A stretch of 64,000 bases of DNA, from positions 288,300,001-288,364,000 of the forward strand of contig OZ024741.1 in the NCBI GenBank assembly GCA_964016885.1, given 5' to 3'. Each line of letters opens with the position of its first letter. Within the stretch, counting starts at the first letter, position 1. A model generated the notes under the pieces. That model was not told where the DNA came from. It ran no database searches and saw only the letters and a program-made list of their open reading frames with translations. The position numbers were made by a program, and so were the translations under genes. Shown piece by piece: positions 4,270-54,135 of the stretch. This DNA is from Eledone cirrhosa (taxonomy: Eukaryota).

Positions 4270-4550
4270 TATCTATAATATTATTCAAAATATTAATAAA
4301 TGGGAAATATCATAAGCAAAGTATATATTTTATTATACATATTTCAAAGGTACAATGGTGTTTCAGTACGTTTTCTTCAGAGAAATTTATAAGAAATTGG
4401 ATATGCGGTATGTCGCATATCCAACCTCTTATATATTTTATCTGATGAAAACGTACCGAAACACCATTGTACCTTTGAAATATGTATAATAAAATATATA
4501 ATTTGCTTATGATATTTCTCATTTATTAATATTTTGAATAATATTATATA
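4270..4550. mobile_element. Inverted pair of Penelope-type pseudo-LTRs, each with a hammerhead
   Basis: Arms of ~120 bp are reverse complements around gatatgcggtatgtcgcatatc. HHR on - at 4323-4390 (CTGAAGA core) and on + at 4431-4499. Confidence 0.75.
4431..4499 (+). ncRNA. Minimal type I hammerhead ribozyme
   Basis: atatattttat-CTGATGA-aaacgtac...gtaccttt-GAAA-tatgta-TA-ataaaatatat. Stem I is 11 bp and stem III is near-palindromic. Confidence 0.75.
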
Positions 4551-9625: not shown

Positions 9626-9849
9626 GTATGCATATTAACGGCTGAGCAGCCTAATTTGCATATCGAGTGAGTTAATCGGCCGGGGTACCGAAAACGATAA
9701 ACGGAAAAAAATGAAACGAAATTTCATTTATCACTCTTAGTACGGCTGTTACTTAAAAATAAGTATGTATACGTACACACATATATGTATACAGCCGTAG
9801 AGTAGTATGTATATATATATATATACATACATGCACACATACTTATGTA

Positions 9850-9850
<1 letters not shown>
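9626..9850 (-). mobile_element. Partial copy of the 420-bp HHR repeat family
   Basis: Matches ~19826-20040 (gcatattaacggctgagc...cactcttagtacggctg). Confidence 0.75.
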
Positions 9851-12290
<2,440 letters not shown>

Positions 12291-15930: not shown

Positions 15931-15979
15931 CATTATATGTATAAAAGAACAATTTATATAAATGGAAAAAATGAATATA

Positions 15980-16334
15980 CATTTATCGTTTTCGGTGCGC
16001 CCGGCCGACTAACTCATTCGATATGCAAATTAGGCTGCTCAGCCGTTAATATGCATAAGGAAAGTATATACTTTCAAACGTTCAATCAACTGATGACAAC
16101 TAAGAAGCTAGAAACTAGTTCATCGTTCCTTTGTCAGTGTTGAACAAAAGGGCAAAGATGGTTGCCGAACACTGTACGGCTTAATTCGGGCTGTTTGTTT
16201 ACAAACAAACCGAACATTATAATAAATGTTCGGTAAACCCATACGTACATATATATATGTGTGCATGTATGTATGTATATACATACTACTGTACGTCTGT
16301 ATACATATATGTATGTACGCATACATATTTATAT

Positions 16335-17118: not shown

Positions 17119-19440
17119 TTAATATTGTTTATTTAATTAAAGTAAGTTTGGCAAAATTATATTTAACCAGAATCTGTTAATAGTTGTAAGTCCAATCTTA
17201 AACACCTAAATAGACACATAGGTATCACTCAATCTTTAACAGACATACAATTAAACTATCATATTCTACCATTATGGATTTAGCGCAGAATATAAATAGA
17301 ATTAATAATAGAAACTTAAAACTTAACCAGAATAACATTAATACCTCTAGCAATATCCAATATAATGATACTGTTCCCAATAATATAAATTCTGATAAAT
17401 GTAATTGTAGAAATAACTGTCCTTTAAATAATAACTGTTTAGTTAAAAATGTAGTATACAATTGCAATGTCAAAACCAATGATAATTCCTTTAACTATGT
17501 CGGCTCTATTTCGACAGACTTCAAATCTCGTTTCAATAACCACAAATGTTCCTTTACGAATATTGGTAAAAAATTCTTCAACCTCTCTATCCAACTTATT
17601 ATGGAACATAAAATCCAAGAATATAAACTATTCTTTATCTTTGAAAATTGTTTCCAAAGCACCAGCCTACACAGCTTTATCCAAATTTTGCAGCCTATGC
17701 GTCGAAGAAATATTCTTTATACTAAAATGTAAGAACTCTATTAATTTGCGTAATAATTTATTTAGTTCTTGTAAACATCGTTTAAATTCAACTTTTAGAT
17801 ATATATATAAAATGTAATATATGGTTAATCTTCCTTACATAATGTTTTCTATATCCAAACACCGATAATCCCATCCCTCAGATTACATCTATATATGATT
17901 CAAGAATTTAATATAATTCTAACCTTCATAACTTCCTAAATATATAAAATACACTTATTAAATTTTTAATTTACTCCTTAAAACCTTTACTTTCTAATAT
18001 TTCTACTTCATAAATATACTTTGTATTATTACACATATCAATCCTACCTCCAAAAATATATCATAACTTTTTTGTATGACTACTTGAAATTCTTTTCAGA
18101 AAGGGTTTTGAAAAACCATTATTTTCATATCTTCCAATATTTTTATATCTTCCAATATTTTAAACATTTTTAATATTTATGTATTTTCATATATTTCCAA
18201 ATATTTATATATATGTGGAATAATGTATGGTTTATGTTTTAATTATATTTTAAGATGAATTTTTATAACTTTTTATAACTTCTTATAAATTTTTAAAGAG
18301 ATTTTTATGTATCCTTGGAGTCATTTGAGTTTTTAAAAAAATCTCTTTTAACTTCCTTTAAACTTCCTTATTGTTTTTATAATCTCAATTTTTATAGTCT
18401 TAATTTATAGTCTGAAATTTTAATTTGTTTTAGTATATACTTCTAATTTAGTATATACTTATTCCTTTGTAAACTCTCGTAATTTTTCGTAATCTTTGGA
18501 ATTATTTAGGTGTTTAAGATTGGACTTACAACTATTAACAAATTCTGGTTAATATAATTTTGCCAAACTTACTTTAATTAAATAAACAATATTATGTTTT
18601 TTTCCAATGTAAAAATACTATACATTTAAATAATTTATAAACTATAACATAACATACCCATCTAAACCTATATATTATTAATACATCTTAATATATTTTA
18701 AATACTTCTTTTTGTAATATATCCTATTTTTAATTAAATTTTTAATTAAATTTTAACAATATTTTTAAATTTTAACAATATTTCTATTTATTTTTATTTA
18801 TTCTTAATTTAATTTTTAACTTATTATAAATATTATAAACATAGCATAATGAACGTTATATTTACGATTTGAGTATTCATCCATGAAAAACTAATTTCTT
18901 CGCTCGCTTCACTTCACTATCACTATGCATAATCTTGTCTTTCTTTCTCCCTTTTTTATCACCCTTTCTCTTTCTTCTTCTCTCTTTCTCTTTTCTTCTC
19001 TCTCCTTTTCACTATTCTTTCTCTCTCCCTTTCAATATTTTCTCTCTCTCCCTTTTATATCTCCTTTTCACTACTTTCTTCCAACAGCTTAATTTAAATA
19101 AACCATTGTTTTTTCAATTTTTCTGACACTCATTTGCATACTCCCTCATAACTTTGAATCACCCCCAATAACATATTATTCCCACTATCCCGCGAACCTC
19201 AACCGTTAAGGTTGTCTTTTTGCGGGTATGTCAATATTTATTTATAAAACAAATTTATATTTTATCTGATGAAAGCGCACCATAATTTTCCTTGGTTGCC
19301 ATTGAAATATATATAATAAAATAATTATGGTTTTATAAATACAGTTTCCATTTATTAATATATTGAATATTTACTCCACTTACAGTTGAGTGCTTTATAT
19401 CAGTTATATAATTTTTAAAACTTGTTGAATCCCAACAAAT
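17119..19440 (+). mobile_element. Penelope-like element 3' part: GIY-YIG endonuclease remnant, AT-rich 3' region and HHR-bearing pLTR
   Basis: CNCRNNCPLNNNCLVKNVVY..YVGS..FKSRFNNH and FCSLC..E...SCKH (frameshifted). 17119-17215 is inverted at 18505-18595. HHR CTGATGA..GAAAtatataTA at 19258-19323. Confidence 0.8.
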
Positions 19441-19477
19441 TAAATATAACCTCTGCATATATATATATATATATATA

Positions 19478-20732
19478 AACGGAGAAAATGAAACGAAATT
19501 TCATTTCCCAGTCTTAGTACGGCTGTTAATTAAATATAAGTATGTACACGTACATACATATATGTATACAGATGTACAGTAGTATGTATATATATATATA
19601 CATGCACCTATATATATATATATGTACGTATAGATTCACCAAACATTTATTATAATGCTCGGTGTGTTTGTAAACAAACATCCCGTATTAAGCCATAGTG
19701 TCCAGCAACCATCGTTGCTCTTTTGTTCAACACTGACAAAGGAACGCTGTACTAGTTTCAAGCTTATTAGCTATCGTCAGCAACGTATACCTTCCTGCCA
19801 GATTGGTGAACGTATATACTTACCTTATGCATATTAACGGCCGAGTAGCCCAATTTGCATATCGAGTGAGTTAATCGGCCGGGTGCACCGAAAACGATAA
19901 ACGGAAAAAATGAAAAGAAATTTCATTTCCCACTCTTAGTACGGCTGTTACTTAAATATAAGTATGTACACGTACATACATATATGTATACAGACGTACA
20001 GTAGTATGTATATATATATACATACATGCACACATATATATATGTACGTATAGATTCACCAAACATTTATTATAATGCTCGGTGTGTTTGTAAACAAACA
20101 TCCCGTATTAAGCCGTAGTGTCCAGCAACCATCGTTTCTCGTTTGTTCAACACTGACAAAGGAACGCTGTACTAGTTTCAAGCTTATTAGCTATCGTCAG
20201 CAACGTATACCTTCCTGCCAGATTGTTGAACGTATATACTTACCTTATGCATATTAACGGCTGAGTAGCCCAATTTGCATATCGAGTGGGTTAATCGGCC
20301 GGGTGCACCGAAAACGATAAACGGAAAAAATGAAACGAAATTTCATTTCCCACTCTTCCGTTTATCGTTTTCAGTGCACCCGGCCGATTAACCCACTCGA
20401 TATGCAAATTGGGCTACTCAGCCGTTAATATGCATCAGGTAAGTATATACGTTCAACAATCTGGCAGGAAGGTATACGTTGCTGACGATAGCTAATAAGC
20501 TTGAAACTAGTACAGCGTTCCTTTGTCAGTGTTGAACAAACGAGCAACGATGGTTGCTGGACACTACGGCTTAATACGGGATGTTTGTTTACAAACACAC
20601 CGAGCATTATAATAAATGTTCGGTGAATCCATATGTACATATATATATGTGTGCATGTATGTATATATACTATATACACATGTATATATACTACTGTACG
20701 TCTGTATACATATATGTATGTACGTGTACATA

Positions 20733-20740
<8 letters not shown>
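19478..20740. mobile_element. Retrozyme-like 420-bp ORF-less repeat: ~2.1 tandem units plus one inverted unit, inside (TA)n
   Basis: HHRs on - at 19744-19786 and 20164-20206, exactly 420 bp apart. The inversion junction is at ~20357, with an HHR on + at 20476-20518. Confidence 0.85.
20476..20518 (+). ncRNA. Minimal type I hammerhead ribozyme (GUA site)
   Basis: acgttg-CTGACGA-tagct(aata)agctt-GAAA-ctag-TA-cagcgt, with palindromic ACTAGT as stem III. Confidence 0.85.
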
Positions 20741-20781
<41 letters not shown>

Positions 20782-20856
20782 CGAGAGAGTTGTGGTAAGG
20801 AACCAGATGGAACATAACGCACCAGAGTACTCAATACTTAGGGTAGTAGAGTGGGT

Positions 20857-20964
20857 AATAGGAAAATGTATGAACGACGGCAGAGCTCAAGCCATTTCGA
20901 CGGCTATTTCTGGCCAGAAATAGCCGTCGAAACGGCTTGAGCTCTGCCGTCGTTCATACATTTT

Positions 20965-20968
<4 letters not shown>
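20857..20968. repeat. Near-perfect palindrome made from the 3' half of the 35032-type hammerhead
   Basis: Centre tctgg|ccaga. Each arm contains GAAA-cggc-ttgagctct-gccg-TC, with one mismatch in the left arm. Confidence 0.85.
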
Positions 20969-34246: not shown

Positions 34247-34444
34247 TATATGCCTTCTGTCTTTACACACAGCACTAGACAAAATCGGTTCCTTCCTCAT
34301 TCACTCTTATCCTGGAACAGTTTTGTATGGCGTCAGTTTGCGATTTGAACTCGGGAATTTTATATTCTCCGAGCGAGAAGAACCTTCTGACGAGAATCCC
34401 CTTCTCAATGGTGGTCCGCCTGGATTATAGATTTATTTTGGGAT

Positions 34445-35283
<839 letters not shown>

Positions 35284-35285
<2 letters not shown>

Positions 35286-36230
35286 CGAATTAAGCCGTAC
35301 AGTGTTTAGCAACCATCGTTGCCCTTTTGTTCAACACTGACAAAGGAATGATGAACTAGTTTCAAGCTTATTAGCTACCATCAGCATCGTATACCTTCCT
35401 GTCAGATGATTGAACGTTTGAAAGTATATACTTTCCTTATGCATATTAACGGCTGAGCAGCCTAATTTGCATATCGAGTGAGTTAGTCGGCCGGGCGCAC
35501 CGAAAACTATAAATGGAAAACATGAAACGAAATTTCATTTCTCACTCTTAGTACGGCTGTTACTTAAATATAAGTATGTATACGTACATGGTGGCTGCCA
35601 ACTCGTTTTCGAGTACGGCCACTACTTTATATCCATGTAGGAGAACCCCTACTGATGCGCTGAACGAGTGTGACTTTTTAGTCCAGCCAGCGACTTGAAA
35701 ACTCTGGTACAAACACTACACTTGTGACAATTATTGACACATAGTGTTGGGCCCATGGTACCATGTGACGACAAGTGCAGAGAGATCTCCAGATATAAAG
35801 CAATGCCTGTGCCGTGAAGCTTTTATAGTGAGCAAAGGCACTGCACAAAGCCAGTCCCACTCTCTTAACCAAGATGATATTTACCAAAAAGAAGAACAAG
35901 TCAACATCATTGGATACCATCAGGGTTGCAGGTGTTATATCAGAGTTTTCCTTCTCCTAGAATTCTGCCTTGACAAAGGCTAAGGGGTCATCTCTCCCGG
36001 TGATTTTGGATGGCCATTGACTCTTAAGAGCTCCTTTGCCCTTTGACAGGTTTTGTTTTTAGTCCTGCAGGATGTCCAAAGTCACCCATATATAAGTATG
36101 TATACGTACATACATATATGTATACAGACGTACAGTAGTATGTATATATATACATACATGCACACATATATATATGTACGTATGGGTTTACCGAACATTT
36201 ATTATAATGCTCGGTTTGTTTGTAAACAAT
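35284..36230 (-). mobile_element. 420-bp HHR repeat copy (HHR 35348-35390) split by an RTE-derived insertion
   Basis: The family sequence resumes after the insertion, and a 22-bp target is duplicated. Confidence 0.8.
35590..36087 (-). mobile_element. Bipartite RTE-derived retroposon, 5'-truncated, with TSD
   Basis: Reverse complement of copies 1-4. atataagtatgtatacgtacat is duplicated at 35568-35589 and 36090-36111. Confidence 0.9.
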
Positions 36231-36239
36231 ATATATATA

Positions 36240-37475
<1,236 letters not shown>

Positions 37476-40514: not shown

Positions 40515-41325
40515 AAGCCGGGCGTACCGAAAACGATAAATGGAAAAGAATGAAACGAAATTTCATTTCACACTCTTAGTACGGCTGACACTTAAATAGT
40601 ATGTATACATACATACATATATGTATACAGACGTACAGTAGTATGTATATATATACATACATGCACACATATAAATATGTACGTATGGGTTTACCGAACA
40701 TTTATTATAATGTTCGGTTTGTTTGTAAACAAACAGCCGAATTAAGCCGTACAGTGTTCGGCAACCATCGTTGCCATTTTGTTCAACACTGACACGTCTG
40801 TATACATATATGTATACATCACTGACAAAGGAACGATGTATATATATACATACTACTGTACGTCTGTATACATATATGTATCTACGTATACATACTGATA
40901 TTTAAGTATCAGCCGTACTAAGAGTGAGAAATGAAATTTCGTTTCATTCTTTTTCATTTATCGTTTTCGGTACGCCCGGCCGACTAACTCACTCGATATG
41001 CAAATTAGGCTGCTCAGCCGTTAATATGCTTAAGGAAAGTATATACTTTCAAACGTTCAATCATCTGACAGGAAGGTATACGATGCTGACGATAGCTAAT
41101 AAGCTTGAAACTAGTTCATCGTTCCTTTGTCAGTGTTGAACAAAATGGCAACGATGGTTGCCGAACACTGTACGGCTTAATTCGGGCTGTTTGTTTACAA
41201 ACAAACCGAGCATTATAATAAATGTTCGGTAAACCCATACGTACATATATATATGTGTGGTTGTATCTATATATATATACATACTACTGTACGTCTGTAT
41301 ACATATATGTATGTACGTATACATA

Positions 41326-41330
<5 letters not shown>
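40515..41330. mobile_element. Inverted pair of 420-bp HHR repeat copies (HHR on + at 41080-41122)
   Basis: acgatg-CTGACGA-tagct(aata)agctt-GAAA-ctag-TT-catcgt. 40515-40795 is in the opposite orientation. Confidence 0.85.
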
Positions 41331-41379
<49 letters not shown>

Positions 41380-41630: not shown

Positions 41631-41955
41631 CCTTTACCATCCCAATGAACGGTCTTTCCGAGTTAGGGACTTCTTCAGCTGCACCTCCACCAGCCTTTTC
41701 TATGGGCTCCGTTCTACTCTGTGCGGAGCCATCTACCTTGGTCAAACTGGCTGTCGTCTGGTCGACTGATTTGCTGAACACCTTCAGGACATCCGGGTCG
41801 GCAACACGACTCCTATCTCCCGACATTTTCGATCCGCCGTCCACTCCACCCGCCACCTCAGTATCTTCGGGCTCTCACAATGTGCTGCACCCTCTGTCTG
41901 ACTCGTGCTGGCAGAAAGAGCAGCAACTTATTTTTTCCTTACACACCTTTCTTTC
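41630..41955 (+). mobile_element. Penelope-like GIY-YIG 3' fragment
   Basis: [42 protein letters not shown]...KEQQLIFSLHT. Confidence 0.7.
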
Positions 41956-42850
41956 CCCTAACCTTCTTCCTTTAGTCTGCTCTGTCATATCCCCTAACCT
42001 TCTTTCTTTAGTCTGCTCTGTCATATCCCCTAACCTTCTTCCTTTAGTCTGCTCTGTCATATCCCCTAACCTTCTTCCTTTAGTCTACTCTGTCATATCC
42101 CCTAACCTTCTTCCTTTAGTCTGCTCTGTCATATCCCCTAACCTTCTTCCTTTAGTCTGCTCTGTCATATCCCCTAACCTTCTTCCTTTAGTCTGCTCTG
42201 TCATATCCCCTAACCTTCTTTCTTTAGTCTGCTCTGTCATATCCCCTAACCTTCTTCCTTTAGTCTACTCTGTCATATCCCCTAACCTTCTTCCTTTAGT
42301 CTGCTCTGTCATATCCCCTAACCTTCTTCCTTTAGTCTGCTCTGTCATATCCCCTAACCTTCTTCCTTTAGTCTACTCTGTCATATCCCCTAACCTTCCT
42401 TTAGTCTGCTCTGTCATATCCCCTAACCTTCTTCCTTTAGTCTGCTCTGTCATATCCCCTAACCTTCTTCCTTTAGTCTGCTCTGTCATATCCCCTAACC
42501 TTCTTCCTTTAGTCTGCTCTGTCATATCCCCTAACCTTCTTCCTTTAGTCTGCTCTGTCATATCCCCTAACCTTCTTCCTTTAGTCTGCTCTGTCATATC
42601 CCCTAACCTTCTTCCTTTAGTCTGCTCTGTCATATCCCCTAACCTTCTTCCTTTAGTCTGCTCTGTCATATCCCCTAACCTTCTTCCTTTAGTCTGCTCT
42701 GTCATATCCCCTAACCTTCTTCCTTTAGTCTGCTCTGTCATATCCCCTAACCTTCTTCCTTTAATCTGCCCTGTCATATCCCCTAACCTTCTTCCTTTAG
42801 TCTACTCTGTCATATCCCCTAACCTTCTTCCTTTAGTCTACTCTGTCATA
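41954..42850. repeat. 36-bp minisatellite, ~25 copies
   Basis: Unit tcccctaaccttcttcctttagtctgctctgtcata. Confidence 0.95.
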
Positions 42851-43973
42851 TACACTCTATCACACACTAAATACTTTCTTTATCCTATGACACATACCCG
42901 TTAATGCATACACACTTACATACAAATCACAGTTAGATACTTTACACGTACACAATATAAACGTCAACATAAATACACACGTTAAAATGTAATAATTGAC
43001 TCACACATACAAATACTCACATCTCACGGACATACGCAAACACTGCCAGATATTTACACACACAAAATTACTTGATACTCTCCGCCGGGGCTGTGGGGAG
43101 GCCAGCACGTGGGACCCCATTTGCTCACCATACAGAGAGATGGGGGAGGGCGAGAGAGATGGGGGTGAGGACAGTGGGAGTTCGGCTCTTCCACGTTCAG
43201 ACCATATCCTTGTGGTTGTATTTATTATCTAGATAGGAAATTATTAACTATTTTACCAGGACACTATGATTGTTGATATGATACATTTATTCATTTACAC
43301 TGGATTAATAGGACTTTAACACTTATTCTGGAGATTCTATCTGAACATGAGAAGCTGATGAAACATATTACATATTTCTATATATGAGTATATTTTTCCT
43401 CTCAATTCTACGTGGTAATATCAGCGTCTCTAGTACACACATTCAAACTTATATTCACTCACACATACAAGTCCACTACCGCTACTATACGGATATACAC
43501 ATACACTCGCTATCTTTGATAATATACGCAAATTTTATATTTTCATTCTGAAGGAACTTATCCACTTGTGTTGATATAAGTGATTTTATGACTTTCCTGT
43601 AAGCATTGTGTCATTATATATGTTATAAGCGTGAATAAAAAATATACACATATATACCTTAAAAATTATACCTTAAAAAATCACACACGTTTAAACATCC
43701 ACTTACACCCACACATAATATCGACAGTATATACACACTTCACTCCAACTCGTTACCAAGACTACCTAACGGTTTGTCTTGTTTACATTCTTCATTTTCG
43801 ATTTATTTTCTTTACTTGGACTTCCTATATTTCTGTTTCACCTTTGTGATCCTGTCTCTATTTTGTACTCCTGAAGAAGGACTAAAGCCCAACACGTCGA
43901 ACTTTCTTTCCTCTTTTCCATATAAAGTGTGAAACTAATAAGACTCTTTGTACCCCTGTTTGTTGTCTCCTTG

Positions 43974-47289: not shown

Positions 47290-48575
47290 TTTTTCATGTT
47301 TAGCTGGTGGCTAACACATCCAGACATCACAGAAACCATAGTTATGCTGGTGGCTAATTCATCCAGATCTCCCAGACGTCATGGTCTCGCTGATAGCTAA
47401 CACATTTAGATGTCGTGGAAACCTTAATCTCGCTGATGGCTCATCTAGATGTCGTGGAAACCTTAATCACGCTGATGGCTAACACATCTAGATGTCACAG
47501 ACGCCCTGGTCTTGCTGATGGCTAACATATCCTGACTCTTAGGAACACTGGTCTTGCTGATGGCTAACACATCTAGACGTCACAGACTCCCTGGTTTCGC
47601 TGATGGCTAACACATTCTAGACGTCACAAACACCCTGGTTTCGCTGATGGCTAACATATCCTGACTCTTAGGAACACTGGTCTTGCTGATTGCTAACACA
47701 TCTAGACGTCACATACATGTGGTGTTGCTGATGGCTAACACACCTAGACGTCACAGACACCCTGGTCTTGCTGATGGCTAACATATCCTGACTCTTAGGA
47801 ACACTGGTCTTGCTGATGGCTAACATCTAACATCTAGACATCACAGACACCCTGGTCTTGCTGATGGCTAACACATCTAGACGTCACAGACACCCTGGTC
47901 TTGCTTATGGCTAACACATCTAGACGTCACAGACACCCTGGTCTTGCTGATGGTTAACACATCTAGACGTCACAGACACCCTGGTCTTGCTGGTGGCTAA
48001 CACATCTAGATGTCAAAGATACCCTGGTCTTGCTGATGGCTAACACATCTAGACGTCACAGAGACCCTGGTCTTGCTGGTGGCTAACACATCTAGATGTC
48101 ACAGACACCCTGGTCTTGCTGATGGCTAACACATCTAGACGTCACAGACACCCTGGTCTTGCTGGTGGCTAACACATCTAGATGTCAAAGATACCCTGGT
48201 CTTGCTGATGGCTAACACATCTAGACGTCACAGACACCCTGGTCTTGCTGATGGCTAACACATCTAGATGTCACAGACACCCTGGTCTTGCTGATGGCTA
48301 ACACATCTAGACATCACAGACACCCTGGTCTTGCTTATGGCTAACACATCTAGACGTCACAGACACCCTGGTCTTGCTGATGGCTAACACACCTAGACGT
48401 CACAGACACCCTGGTCTTGCTGATGGCTAACACATCTAGACGCCACAGACACCCTGGTCTTGCTGATGGATAACATATCTAGACGTCACAGAGACCCTGG
48501 TCTTGCTGATGGCTAACACATCTAGACCACACAGACACGCTGGTTTCGCTGATGGCGAATCTCACCTAGACATAG
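47290..48575. repeat. 43-bp minisatellite, ~30 copies, degenerate at the left edge
   Basis: Unit cctggtcttgctgatggctaacacatctagacgtcacagacac, with starts at 47851, 47894 and 47937. Confidence 0.95.
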
Positions 48576-49462: not shown

Positions 49463-52400
49463 TGTGGCGGCCCCTTACGGCTGTGACTCAGCACGTATAG
49501 GAGTTGCGTCCCTTTACGATGGTCGTAACTCAGCACGTATAGGAGTTACGTCCCTTTGCGACGGGCGTGACTCCCATTGGCAGATTCATGTACTAAATGG
49601 AGTTACGTCCTCCTGGGGACTATATATTTGAGGACATCAAGGCATAACTCTCTCTCGCTTCCTGAACTTCGAAGGGACAAGCAGAACCTTACCAAGAGAA
49701 GATTTCTGTTCTTCTCTACACACTCCAGTCTGGGAGTTGTGACCAACTGAACATCAACATGTGGTAACAATTATTTATATCAATTTATTTGACTTCTGTG
49801 AAGTAAAACCATGTCACAACACTCACCTGCAGTTATTGTCATTCTTGATAATTTATCTGATATGGCTGTATTGACCGATCTAAACATATTTGTACGAATG
49901 TTTTTTCTTTTTTTTTCTCCTTTTCTTCTTTTCTTCTTTTCTCTGGCTAAAATGTTTGAGGATGACCAGATGGCGGCTTTCTTCTCTATCAATAGTGTTT
50001 TTGGCGCGAAATAGTCCGCCATGTTGGTTTTAGTTTTAAATTCCCTGCCTATACCTTATTAATGACATCGCTCGGTTAGTCGCTCCTTTGCATATTGTCT
50101 CGGATGCATTCTTTTTCCTGTCCAGTTGTTTGAAAGAGAAAAATAAGCGATTTTGTTTTCCTTTTCTGTTGTGTTGGAGACATTTTTCCAAACGGAGAAG
50201 ATTTTTTTTTTTTGCAAATTACCTACGGCATAACAATGGCATCTCATTCAGCCATTATGGCGATGCAGGAGTCCATTCAGGAACTCACCCTGGAGCTCCA
50301 GAAGATGAAGGTCTGGTGTGGTGCCCGTTCGCGCCCGCGCAGCCGCGGGGGATTTCAATCTTTTAGACGCCGTCCAAAGTCACCAGCTTCATCTTTATGC
50401 GGGTACCATGAGCGATTTGCCGAGAGCGCGAACCACTGCGTGCAACCTTTCTCGTTTCATAAGGCGGGAAACGCCAGAGAGGTCTGCTGACGGGGGTAGT
50501 TGGCCTCAACATAAAGCCACCAAACTGCCATTTCTTCATTAAGGACCTTATGTCGGGAAGAGGTTTCCTCGTGCATACAGGAGCCTCCTGTAGTATTTGG
50601 CCGGTCCATTGCCTGAAAGATACCCCTGTAGAGTCATCCGTTACTCTGCAGGCTGTTAATCACTCGTTTATAAAGACGTACGGGAAAATCTCGCTTCCTC
50701 CCAAATTCCTAAATCTTCGTAGAGATTTTAACTGGATTTTTACGGTTGCCGATTTGCCATACCCTATCTTAGGAGCGGATTTCCTCCACAACTTCTCTTT
50801 GACTGTGGACATCCGTAGCCAACGCCTGGTGGATGACATCACCGGTTTTTCAATTCGTGGCCGGAAAGCCAATACTCCAACAGTCAGCCCCATATTCTTC
50901 ATCGCTGCTGCTGGTGACGCCTACCATTCGTTGTTAGGTTCTTTCCCGGAGCTCACCGATGGAAATTTTCGAGTCACTGAGCCAACACACTCAACTGAAC
51001 ATTTCATTTCCACCACCGGTGCTCCAGTGTTTTCGCGTCCACGCCGCTTACCGGCGGACAAATTAAAGGCAGCACGGTCCGAGTTCGACCATATGCTACA
51101 GCTGGGCATTATTCGCCCATCTACGAATCCTTGGGCTTCACCGTTACACATGGTGCCCAAGACTTCCGGCGACTGGAGACCCACTGGGGATTATAGAAGG
51201 TTAAATGCGATGACCGTCCCGGATAGGTATCCCATTCCCCATCTCCACGATTTAGCATCTTCATTGCAGGGGTGTAAGATTTTCTCAAAACTAGATTTAG
51301 TGCGAGCCGACCACCAAATTCCGGTCAGGAAGGAGGATATTCCGAAAACGGCGATTACAACTCCTTTCGGATCCTTCGAATTTTTGACCATGCCTTTCGG
51401 ACTCAGGAACGCCGCTAACACTTTTCAGCGGTTCATAGATGAATCACTCGTGGTCTGGACTTCGTTTATGCTTACGTAGACGATATTCTCGTCGCTAGTT
51501 CCTCTCCGGAAGAGCATATGCGCCACATGCATCTCTTATTTCGGCGACTTCAGGATTACCGCGTTCGTGTGAATCCCGCAAAGTGTGTTTTCGGTTCCAC
51601 TTCGCTAAATTTTTTAGGCCACCTCATCGACGCCGAAGGTATTAGGCCGCTCCCTCAGCGAGTTCAAGCCATACAGGATTTACCTCCGCCTACTACACTT
51701 CACCAGTTGCGTCACTTCTTAGGCCTAATCAATTTCTATAGGCGTTTCGTTCCTCATTGTGCTAATTTGCTATCTTCCCGTACGGACATATTGAAAAATC
51801 GTCGTAAGAAGAATGAGGATATTTCCTTGACACAAGGACAGCTTCAAGACTTCCAGACTGCCAAGACAGCACTCGCTAGTTCATCTTTTCTAGCCCACCC
51901 GGTACCAGAGGCCAAGCTTTCGCTTTGTGTTGATGCATCTGATACCGCTGTGGGAGCAGTTTTACAGCAGTTCAACGCTGGAAACCAACAATCATTGGCA
52001 TTTTTCTCGAGGAAGCTGAAACCAGCAGAAACGCGTTACAGCACGTTTGGGCTGGAATTATTAGTCATATATCTGTCGGTGAAACATTTCTCTCATATTC
52101 TTGAGGGGAGAAATTTTACTGTTTTAACCGACCACAAACCTCTGACCTTCGCTTTGAGGGCTAAAGCCGACAGATATTCGCCCAGAGAGACAAGGCACGT
52201 GGATTACGTTTCGCAATTTACAAATGATATCCAGCACATTGCTGGCTCGCATAACATAGCTGCAGACGCATTGTCACGTTTGTCAATCAGCTCCATCTCG
52301 TCATCCCAGGAGATCGACTTAGGTCGTTTAGCTGCAGACCAACCTGAACTCCAATCGTTGGATACTCTTTCTGCCGAATTTGCGACTTGCATCTTCAAAT

Positions 52401-54135
52401 ATCTGCCCTTGTCGACCACCGACAGGCAGATTCTATGTGATGTATCTACAGATTCACCACGACCACTTGTTCCTGAGACTGACCGTCGAATTGTGTTCCT
52501 TGCTTTGCACAGCATTTCTCACCCAGGAATTTCTGCCACAGTAAAGCTTATAACGGCTAGATTTTTCTGGCCCAATATGAGGCGAGAAATTACTGTCTGG
52601 TGCCGTTCCTGCACACAGTGTCAGATATCTAAAATCCACAGACACATCCGGACTCCACTTGGTACTTTCAGTACTCCAAATGCTCGGTTTCAACACATCC
52701 ACATTGATATTGTTGGACCTTGGCCATTCGTACCTCTTGACCTGTATCGATCGTTTTTCGCGATGGCCTGAAGCCATCCCCTTACAAGATATAACTGCTG
52801 AGACTGTAGCGCGTGCCCTGGTATCAGGGTGGATTACCCGCTTTGGGGTACCAACTACAGTGACCACAGACCGTGGTAGACAATTTGAGTCTCATCTCTT
52901 CTCTGAGCTCACAAAAATCATTGGCGCTAGGAATTCGGTCATCAATAAAGGAGGACCTTGGGTTCTCCCCGGCCGAATTACTGTATGGTGCTCCTCTAGC
53001 GTTTCCTGGGCAAATGCTTGCCCCTGTTGATCTTGCTTTCCAGGACCCTGTTTCCTACGTATCTCGTTTGCGCTCCTATTTTCAGGACTTACCGCCCATG
53101 AATACTAGGAAACAAACTATTAAAGCTGCAGTCCCGAGGGATATTGCCTCGTGGACACATGTATTCGTCAGAAACGATGCGGTTACTCCACCCCTCACAC
53201 AACCGTACTTTGGACCCTACCGTGTGTTATCACGTACTGACAAACATTTCACTGTAGACATTAAGGGGTCCAGAGAGACAATTTCGGTGGATAGACTAAA
53301 AAGGGCATACAATGACGCTCATACACCCGATCCACAAATACCCCAATCTTTCTCTCTTGTGCATACACCTGCTCCTTCTGCCCCACCTTCACCTACATAC
53401 AAGACCACGACCCGTTCCGGTCGAAGAGTCCACTGGCCCAAAAAACTCTGCTAAACTGTTTTCACGTGAACTGGCCACTGGAGCCTTATTTTTTTTGTTT
53501 TTCTCTTTATTGTATTACCATGTACCTTTCGTTAGCATTTCATGCCTGTACCTTCTCGTTACCATTTCATGCCTGTGCTGGGAGCCCATGCTTGTGGTTT
53601 CGCTACAGTTACCTTCGGGCTTTTCACCTAGCGTCCGGAGGAGGGTACTGTAGCGGCCCCTTACGGCTGTGACTCGGCACGTATAGAAGTTGCGTCCCTT
53701 TACGACGGTCGTAACTCAGCACGTATAGGAGTTACGTCCCTTTGCGACGGGCGCGACTCCCATTGGCAGATTCATGTACTAAATGGAGCTGCGTCCCCCT
53801 GGGGACTATATATTTGAGGACAATCAAGGCATAACTCTCTCTCGCATCCTGAACTTCGAAGGGACAAGAACACCTGAGACCTTGTCAAGAGATGACTCCT
53901 GTCTCACTTCCTTCGCCTGCAAGAAGAAGAACACCGGCAGCCTAAAGAAATACTTGAACACCTCCAAGAGAAGATTTCTGTTCTTCTCTACACACTCCAG
54001 TTTGGGAGTTGTGACCAACTGAACATCTACATGTGGTAACAATTATTCATATTAATTTATTTGACTTCTGTGAAGTAAAACCATGTCACAACACTCACCT
54101 GCATTTATTGTCATTCTTGATAATATATATATACA
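49463..54135 (+). mobile_element. Ty3/Gypsy LTR retrotransposon, decayed
   Basis: LTRs at 49463-~49852 and 53649-~54135, both starting TG. PPT ggaggaggg precedes the 3' LTR. Internal order is PR-RT-RH-IN. Confidence 0.92.
50212..53454 (+). pseudogene. Gypsy gag C-terminus/pol, frameshifted
   Basis: Gag end CGYHERF...C. PR LVHTGAS (D to H). [16 protein letters not shown] and YVDD at ~51474. RNase H DAS..TDHKPL..ADALSR. IN H.ISH..CTQC, TTDRGRQF, internal deletion, then GPY. Confidence 0.9.

Follow-up and report, generated by a model that had tools for sequence, protein, structure and literature searches.

A 420-bp tandem and inverted repeat with hammerhead motifs

The stretch of Eledone cirrhosa DNA analysed here, 64,000 nucleotides long and hereafter called the window, contains at 19475–20357 a tandem repeat of period 420 (2.1 copies, 95% matches by TRF), to which an inverted 0.95 copy is joined head-to-head, reaching 20742. 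The longest stop-free frame in the unit is 67 codons, which bears out an earlier note on this DNA that had described an ORF-less, 420-bp unit in tandem and inverted orientation. With position 1 of the unit set at the first base past the predicted hammerhead cleavage site, arm 1 (19475–20357, minus strand, 2.1 tandem units) is 5′ truncated at unit position 233 and has its 3′ end at 273, the long site, and arm 2 (20358–20742, plus strand, 0.95 unit) has its 3′ end at 217, the short site. The 56-nt “tail”, the stretch that separates the short from the long 3′ end (19475–19530, minus strand), holds a hairpin that is also present in a 467-bp sister family, and it is missing from the outer end of arm 2. 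The insertion lies between (TA)n target sequence on the left (19457–19476) and on the right (20739–20780). Three type I hammerhead motifs are found here: one with an extended stem I at 19733–19801 (minus strand, C3 at 19780, predicted cleavage after the GUA at 19750), a second 420 nt from the first at 20153–20221 (minus strand, C3 at 20200, predicted cleavage after 20170), and a third in the inverted arm at 20461–20529 (plus strand, C3 at 20482, predicted cleavage after 20512).

Four other loci in the window carry sequence of the unit. A 235-bp minus-strand fragment at 9627–9861 (unit 114–344) is interrupted by another repeat and has no hammerhead. At 15950–16334 (plus strand), a head-to-head pair joins a short minus arm with a long end (~15950–15980) to a plus arm (15982–16334, unit 269 to 214) whose hammerhead is damaged by the loss of the stem I 5′ arm. 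Two minus-strand fragments at 35282–36229 (35282–35589 and 36090–36229) are separated by an unrelated 500-bp repeat, and the core of the first has A9 changed to G. The head-to-head pair at 40517–41335 (plus strand) consists of a minus arm (40517–40794, unit 12–292) and a plus arm (40839–41335, 152 to 217) whose hammerhead is intact and belongs to the A-U subfamily (C3 at 41086, GUU triplet). The earlier count of five loci thus stands for the sequence, but whole units occur only at 19475–20742 and 40839–41335; likewise the motif is present as had been claimed for most copies, but its four intact examples (19780 and 20200 on the minus strand, 20482 and 41086 on the plus strand) fall at just two of the five loci.

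Further repeats were noted in the window. An LTR-retrotransposon-like pol at 50463–53454, with protease, RT, RNase H and integrase motifs recognised by eye, is broken into several frames, and minisatellites occupy 41954–42851 (36 bp x 25) and 47303–48571 (43 bp x 29.5). A fold-back with inverted arms of several hundred bases lies at 34440–35290, between a fragment of a Penelope element (PLE) and the unit fragment at 35282. Short elements at 20781–20966 and 34690–35140 (also at two loci elsewhere, L105 and L148) form inverted pairs in (TA)n with two 3′ ends ~80 nt apart; they may hold a variant-core hammerhead, seen by eye and not recovered by the computed scan.

The hammerhead is of canonical size

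A structural scan of the window for type I hammerheads (stem I at least 6, stem II at least 4, stem III at least 2) returned five matches, four in the 420-bp unit and one unrelated; none was returned by any of 30 shuffled windows. Read on the hammerhead strand, the motif comprises a 6-bp stem I, a 3-nt/1-nt bulge and a 10-bp extension, the core CUGACGA, a U-U pair below a 4-bp stem II, GAAA, a palindromic stem III of 2 bp, and GUA. The core CTGACGA is found in 112 of 139 dispersed motifs, at loci picked by an adjacent 21-mer. Measured against the definitions in the available text of PMC4209133, where the minimal hammerheads (min-HHR) of PLE pLTRs have a stem II of 7–8 bp, a stem I of 4–5 bp and a poorly defined loop 1, the 4-bp stem II and the 6-bp stem I with its bulged 10-bp extension mark the motif, as judged from its sequence, as the canonical retrozyme/metazoan kind and not the “minimal” Penelope kind, a label that the earlier note had given it. 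The palindromic stem III of that description is indeed present, weak and 2 bp long, and it is a feature shared with the min-HHR described there, in which such a stem III is suited to dimer cleavage. Searches with Rfam, which had been proposed as a check, gave no hammerhead in 20060–20620 at E≤10, none in the whole window at E≤1 among 150 matches listed of 283, and none in two sister-family loci at the gathering score.

Stem I had also been said to covary between subfamilies. This is true, but it rests on a single base pair: among 70 distinct rows from 85 aligned copies, the pair is U-G in 35, A-U in 21, G-U in 9, U-A in 2, C-G in 1 and unpaired in 2. Two-sided change, which within the motif is nearly confined to this pair, affects just 2 of 27 pairs, a number reached by 455 of 500 shuffles, and variation in stems II and III was fixed beforehand by the way in which most loci were selected. 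Elsewhere in the unit, two-sided changes are seen at the predicted pairs 240–301 (G-C 51, A-U 30, G-U 8, other 1) and 59–224. Across three families, stems I–III of the hammerhead are rewritten with pairing kept, and this rewriting is stronger support for a hammerhead than the covariation within the 420-bp family.

The predicted circular fold of the 420-nt unit (−134.3 kcal/mol) forms stems I and II with high probability and includes as helices the three further hairpins pointed out earlier, cgaacatt..aatgttcg among them. In the same prediction for the monomer, stem III stays open (probability 0.0), as expected of a motif that needs a dimer (PMC4209133). As in known retrozymes, GC content is low and the circle, in prediction only, is self-paired and exposes the ribozyme. 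Overall folding is strong (z −7.2); with the AT core removed, the z-score is −3.5 on the hammerhead strand and −4.2 on the opposite strand, so there is no strand preference. Hammerheads have reportedly been described to cleave as dimers by Lunse in 2017. We also observed a consensus-like splice donor and acceptor flanking the hammerhead at unit positions 346 and 17 (window ~19824 and ~19733, minus strand). About half of the copies no longer have the donor, and splicing around the ribozyme was rejected, with no spliced junction in 168 loci.

An abundant family with no attached RT gene

In the 2,995,841,428-base assembly, an exact 21-mer of the hammerhead core has 13,555 matches and a second 21-mer of the unit 17,487 (control 0 in both cases), so that the genome-wide check called for earlier yields thousands of exact matches. 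We studied ~94 loci out of these many thousands, namely the 72 loci represented by the first 100 listed hammerhead matches in genome order and 22 best-hit loci.

The unit has neither LTRs nor an attached RT ORF, as judged from 60 unpaired 5′ flanks, 0 of which encode a same-strand PLE protein. Two of the 60 hold an unrelated RT and four (three independent) hold opposite-strand PLE pieces from three families; no upstream coding sequence common to these flanks was found, and no contiguous RT plus GIY-YIG ORF was found upstream or downstream of long copies. The sequence preceding a unit is again unit sequence, with up to 5.35 units in dispersed copies and ~250 in an array on C28. Since extension runs into further units and the flanks lack PLE protein, the bulk of copies are not truncated PLE tails, and the possibility foreseen in the earlier note, that the unit is always attached to a coding element and hence simply a pLTR, does not agree with the flanks. 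The copies instead have the make-up of retrozymes: a non-coding unit within the 150–450-bp range, in tandems of 2–5 units and one 111-kb array, with the hammerheads of consecutive units 420 nt apart.

The 111-kb array (C28:109,956,629-110,067,798) starts with a head-to-head junction and shows higher-order repeats, a 3.7-kb interruption and an internal rearrangement; neighbouring units are 6.3% divergent, as much as distant ones. A prediction that the array ends at the long site failed, short ends being found on both sides. An older, more diverged subfamily was seen at two loci (L284, L288), in which the AT core is expanded to long (TA)n and the period is ~487–604 bp.

Two fixed 3′ ends joined in inverted pairs

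The 3′ ends of the copies are largely fixed. Across the 72 loci, 53 of 127 lie at 258–275 (mostly 273), 53 at 204–222 (mostly 217) and 21 elsewhere; the two sites are 56 nt apart, and TA/TC runs follow 99 of the 106 canonical ends. The 5′ ends are spread evenly: 5 of the 127 come within 12 nt of the cleavage site, where 3.6 would be expected. Segments one unit or more in length account for 57 of 126. The lack of a 5′ pile-up at the cleavage site, together with these long segments, indicates that inserted copies do not derive from cleaved linear monomers.

Head-to-head pairs number 40, of which 27 have both ends canonical and 13 have one broken end. A long end is joined with a short end in 27/27 intact pairs (26 independent), an outcome with a chance of ~1 in 7 × 10⁷ for the 26 if ends were drawn independently; in the best-hit set, 8 of 9 pairs are long plus short and two further pairs are broken. 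Arm lengths are independent, the long-end arm being the longer in 18 of 35. The junctions (52 in all) overlap by 9–55 nt in 7 cases, by 1–6 nt in 21 and not at all in 24. Target-site duplications are unreadable, as the insertions sit in (TA)n. Priming of the L1 twin type was considered and rejected, given that 5′ ends of long arms do not cluster beside the short site.

Fixed 3′ ends with variable 5′ truncation, one-tail inverted pairs and a (TA)n target are the marks of PLE insertion. An inverted 5′ copy, a tail often on one end and a (TA)n bias are described as PLE traits in the available text of Craig 2021 (PMC8557442) and Arkhipova 2013 (PMC3846280). From the two fixed 3′ ends, the one-tail pairs and the (TA)n target, read beside these published traits, we conclude that the end pattern is the PLE “tail” signature and that the 420-bp unit inserts like a PLE. 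The earlier proposal of a retrozyme-like, non-coding family mobilised by Penelope elements is strengthened by the same observations.

Sister families and coding PLEs obey the same rule

The pairing of a long with a short end extends beyond the 420-bp family. It holds in 11/11 insertions of the 467-bp sister family, in 6/6 pairs with intact ends (among 15 pairs) of a ~435-bp sister family, and in 7/7 readable pairs of coding PLEs from two families of the Eledone cirrhosa genome, in which the tail is ~90 nt. The 467-bp family ends at 229–234 and 301–303 and has a homologous tail hairpin. In the window, a distantly related ~435-bp sister unit with its own hammerhead lies at 36571–37385 (minus strand) as a head-to-head pair that joins a long to a short end.

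Several further observations concern these families. The ~435–441-bp family is also present at 36245–36308; its stem III is 3 bp and its ends lie near 140 and 163–188. The 467-bp family (for example C11:9507528-9510799) is very young, at ~1–2% divergence. At C5:62.05 Mb, seven-plus tandem 467-bp units are drawn alternately from two variant sets, and the same pair closes the inverted arm; this alternation reflects either a dimeric template or a later dimer duplication. The coding PLE studied has a hammerhead with a long stem II, unlike the canonical motif of the 420-bp unit. Other hammerhead families with a long stem II occur in the window at 4442, 14937 and 19266 (plus strand), 1752 (minus strand) and 44048 (plus strand); of these, the 19266 motif is followed after ~190 nt by a 3′ end and lies downstream of a GIY-YIG fragment (17214–17817), an arrangement typical of PLE tails.

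The neighbouring PLEs, which had been put forward as partners, are not supported in that role. Comparison of the 420-bp unit with five PLE families, of the many more in the genome, by BLAST and profile search gave no homology other than 22 matching nt at an AG|GTAAGT motif, a match that was rejected since 10 and 5 of 300 shuffles attain it too. PLE fragments abut the unit head-to-head at three independent loci, yet they belong to three different families (33–52% amino acid identity) and single out no partner; where the unit sits next to a PLE 3′ end, at three loci (L148, L284 and L288), the two are separate insertions across (TA)n. One of the five families has many intact 775-codon frames and is a partner candidate, by age only. 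Pfam searches with seven window peptides recovered only GIY-YIG (below cut-off) and RVT_1; with so low a yield, elements were assigned to PLEs by their motifs, the order of their domains and the structure of their ends.

Variants shared between arms

The two arms of an insertion match one another as closely as do tandem units within one arm (median rank 0.076 and 0.074 against other loci). Rare variants are common to two copies at 32 of 18,877 sites within an arm, 23 of 12,695 between arms and 81 of 545,125 between loci, or 1.7, 1.8 and 0.15 per 1000 sites (~12-fold), counts that are not independent in that the same variant is recounted; no more than 11 of 41 arm pairs, and 11 of 50 arms, have any rare variant in common. 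Gene conversion could add to this sharing. In the young 467-bp family, locus-private variants are common to both arms in 4 of 11 insertions. As read from these sequences, the pattern suggests two priming events on one RNA, one per start site. One young 467-bp insertion alternates two monomer types, which means that it was copied from something other than a single monomer circle.

Discussion

By sequence criteria, the 420-bp family belongs to the animal non-LTR retrozymes. In the available text of Cervera and De la Pena 2020 (PMC7229834), type I repeats of coral, mussel and axolotl self-cleave and accumulate as circles, mussel retrozymes measuring 350–390 bp and the axolotl representative being HHR_Amex2. 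The likeness extends to a non-coding 150–450-bp tandem unit of low GC with a canonical type I hammerhead per unit, to copies that range from dimers to long multimers, and to the coexistence of PLEs; in HHR_Amex2, as in the present motif, a U-U lies at the foot of stem II and stem III has 2 bp. Expression, cleavage and circles were shown for those retrozymes, whereas the 420-bp family is known from its sequence, and self-cleavage and circle formation of the 420-nt RNA are predicted. Conversely, that text describes neither fixed 3′ ends nor a tail nor inverted pairs, and it names PLEs only as strong candidates, a hypothesis repeated in PMC11722881 (available text). A recent preprint (bioRxiv 10.64898/2026.07.22.740005) argues, in the text available, from co-occurrence and Xenopus pLTR homology that vertebrate retrozymes are non-autonomous PLE derivatives, and it reports cleavage in 1 of 9 frog dimers. 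It shares with our analysis a dependence of retrozymes on PLEs, with dispersed monomers and local long arrays; it differs in that it covers no molluscs and builds on co-occurrence and pLTR homology, whereas our argument builds on an insertion signature and no homologous pLTR was found among the families compared. The open papers searched describe no cephalopod retrozyme and no retrozyme end signature, and the available text of the 2026 Octopus vulgaris repeat annotation (PMC13282606) mentions neither hammerhead nor ribozyme.

We regard it as very probable that the 420-bp family is a non-autonomous element driven by PLEs. As described in the portions cited of the papers above, insertions of EN+ PLEs share with it 5′ truncation, partial tandems, an inverted 5′ copy, a one-end tail, (TA)n and two RT starts; they differ in possessing an ORF and in a tail cited as 30–40 nt against 56 nt here. 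The one-end tail is called “often” present or “optional” in those PLEs, whereas it is near-absolute in the 420-bp family. Chlamys elements such as MRC1 (PMC8557442, available text) are likewise non-coding PLE dependants with multicopy head-to-tail insertions; they are found in green algae, generally have no canonical hammerhead, and have a known 3′ similarity to an autonomous family, whereas none was found for the 420-bp unit among five PLE families.

A plausible route of propagation can be outlined, and we consider the whole chain, in which a self-cleaving, probably circular RNA is copied by a PLE RT/endonuclease into (TA)n, to be reasonably probable. Tandem copies would be transcribed on the hammerhead strand, whereupon ribozymes 420 nt apart would cut, probably as dimers via the palindromic stem III, and the monomer would be ligated. 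A PLE protein dimer may then bind near the tail hairpin and nick both strands of (TA)n, the two nicks priming cDNA on the same RNA at 273 and at 217, each at a UUAU(AU) target match. Each cDNA would extend along the circle over part of a unit or as many as several units, and the cDNA ends would be joined, often over a few matching bases, to give an inverted insertion. In the available text of Frangieh 2024 (PMC11167929), a PLE protein, predicted to be a dimer, cuts and extends both target strands, and the tail is the span between two internal RT start sites. Somewhat less probable, though credible, is a radiation of at least three related hammerhead circles, one of them very young, in which a PLE dimer primes twice on the same circle, at one and then the other of two fixed start sites, and leaves exactly one tail in every inverted insertion.

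Because copies read through the cleavage site, the template is either a circle or an uncleaved multimer. A PLE-driven element could be copied from an uncleaved linear multimer transcribed from the arrays, with a hammerhead that is slow, late or used for trimming and with circles that are not intermediates. Arrays of up to 111 kb exist, monomer types alternate in one sister insertion, stem III is missing from the predicted monomer, and for one PLE studied in vitro (PMC11167929, available text) unprocessed RNA was the main substrate, with no reads ending at its cleavage site. Such a template nonetheless sits awkwardly with the dispersed copies, in which only 7 of 126 segments reach two units, and with units that are closer within one arm than to other loci (median rank 0.07) when neighbours in the C28 array differ by as much as distant units; nor does it account well for a hammerhead kept by compensatory change across three families. 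We consider it rather unlikely. With conserved ribozymes, homogeneity of units within arms and the published circles of mussel, coral and axolotl in its favour, a circular template is placed somewhat ahead.

That the copies are 5′-truncated pLTR ends of an autonomous PLE whose coding part was unsampled is improbable. Their ends behave exactly as in coding PLEs of this genome, and the loci studied are few among many thousands; against this, 5′ extension always runs into another unit, both in dispersed copies and in the C28 array, the unpaired flanks yielded neither same-strand PLE protein nor a common upstream coding sequence, and the canonical hammerhead is distinct from the long-stem-II motif of the coding PLE. 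Still less do we expect the inverted arm to stem from fold-back or self-priming of an antisense template in place of a second target-primed cDNA. For rotifer PLEs, the available text of PMC3846280 proposes that palindromes at the inverted junctions self-prime, and the 9–55-nt overlaps at 7 of 52 junctions and the variants common to both arms would suit it, yet fold-back alone predicts neither the tail difference between outer ends nor the independent arm lengths, and most junctions overlap by just 1–6 nt or not at all. A DNA-level satellite or MITE/Helitron-like repeat with the hammerhead as a passenger and no RNA stage is extremely improbable and largely refuted for dispersed copies, which have fixed 3′ ends, random 5′ truncation, the end rule of coding PLEs and no terminal inverted repeats in common, and it applies only to array growth, for which the higher-order repeats of the 111-kb array indicate DNA-level expansion.

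The class of animal non-LTR retrozymes and the PLE hypothesis are already in print; what is new is direct, insertion-level genomic evidence for a link between retrozymes and PLEs, for which co-occurrence and homology had been the earlier arguments. The family bears on two questions, the identity of the enzyme behind the spread of animal retrozymes and the assembly of inverted, one-tailed PLE insertions; the near-absolute pairing of long with short ends constrains the mechanism to different start sites on a seemingly single template. A small substrate is offered by the young 467-bp family, and candidate enzymes by the numerous PLE copies with long ORFs in this genome. If true, double priming on one circle would tie animal retrozymes directly to the PLE machinery, and one rule would explain the long-unexplained inverted-repeat-plus-tail structure of PLE insertions.
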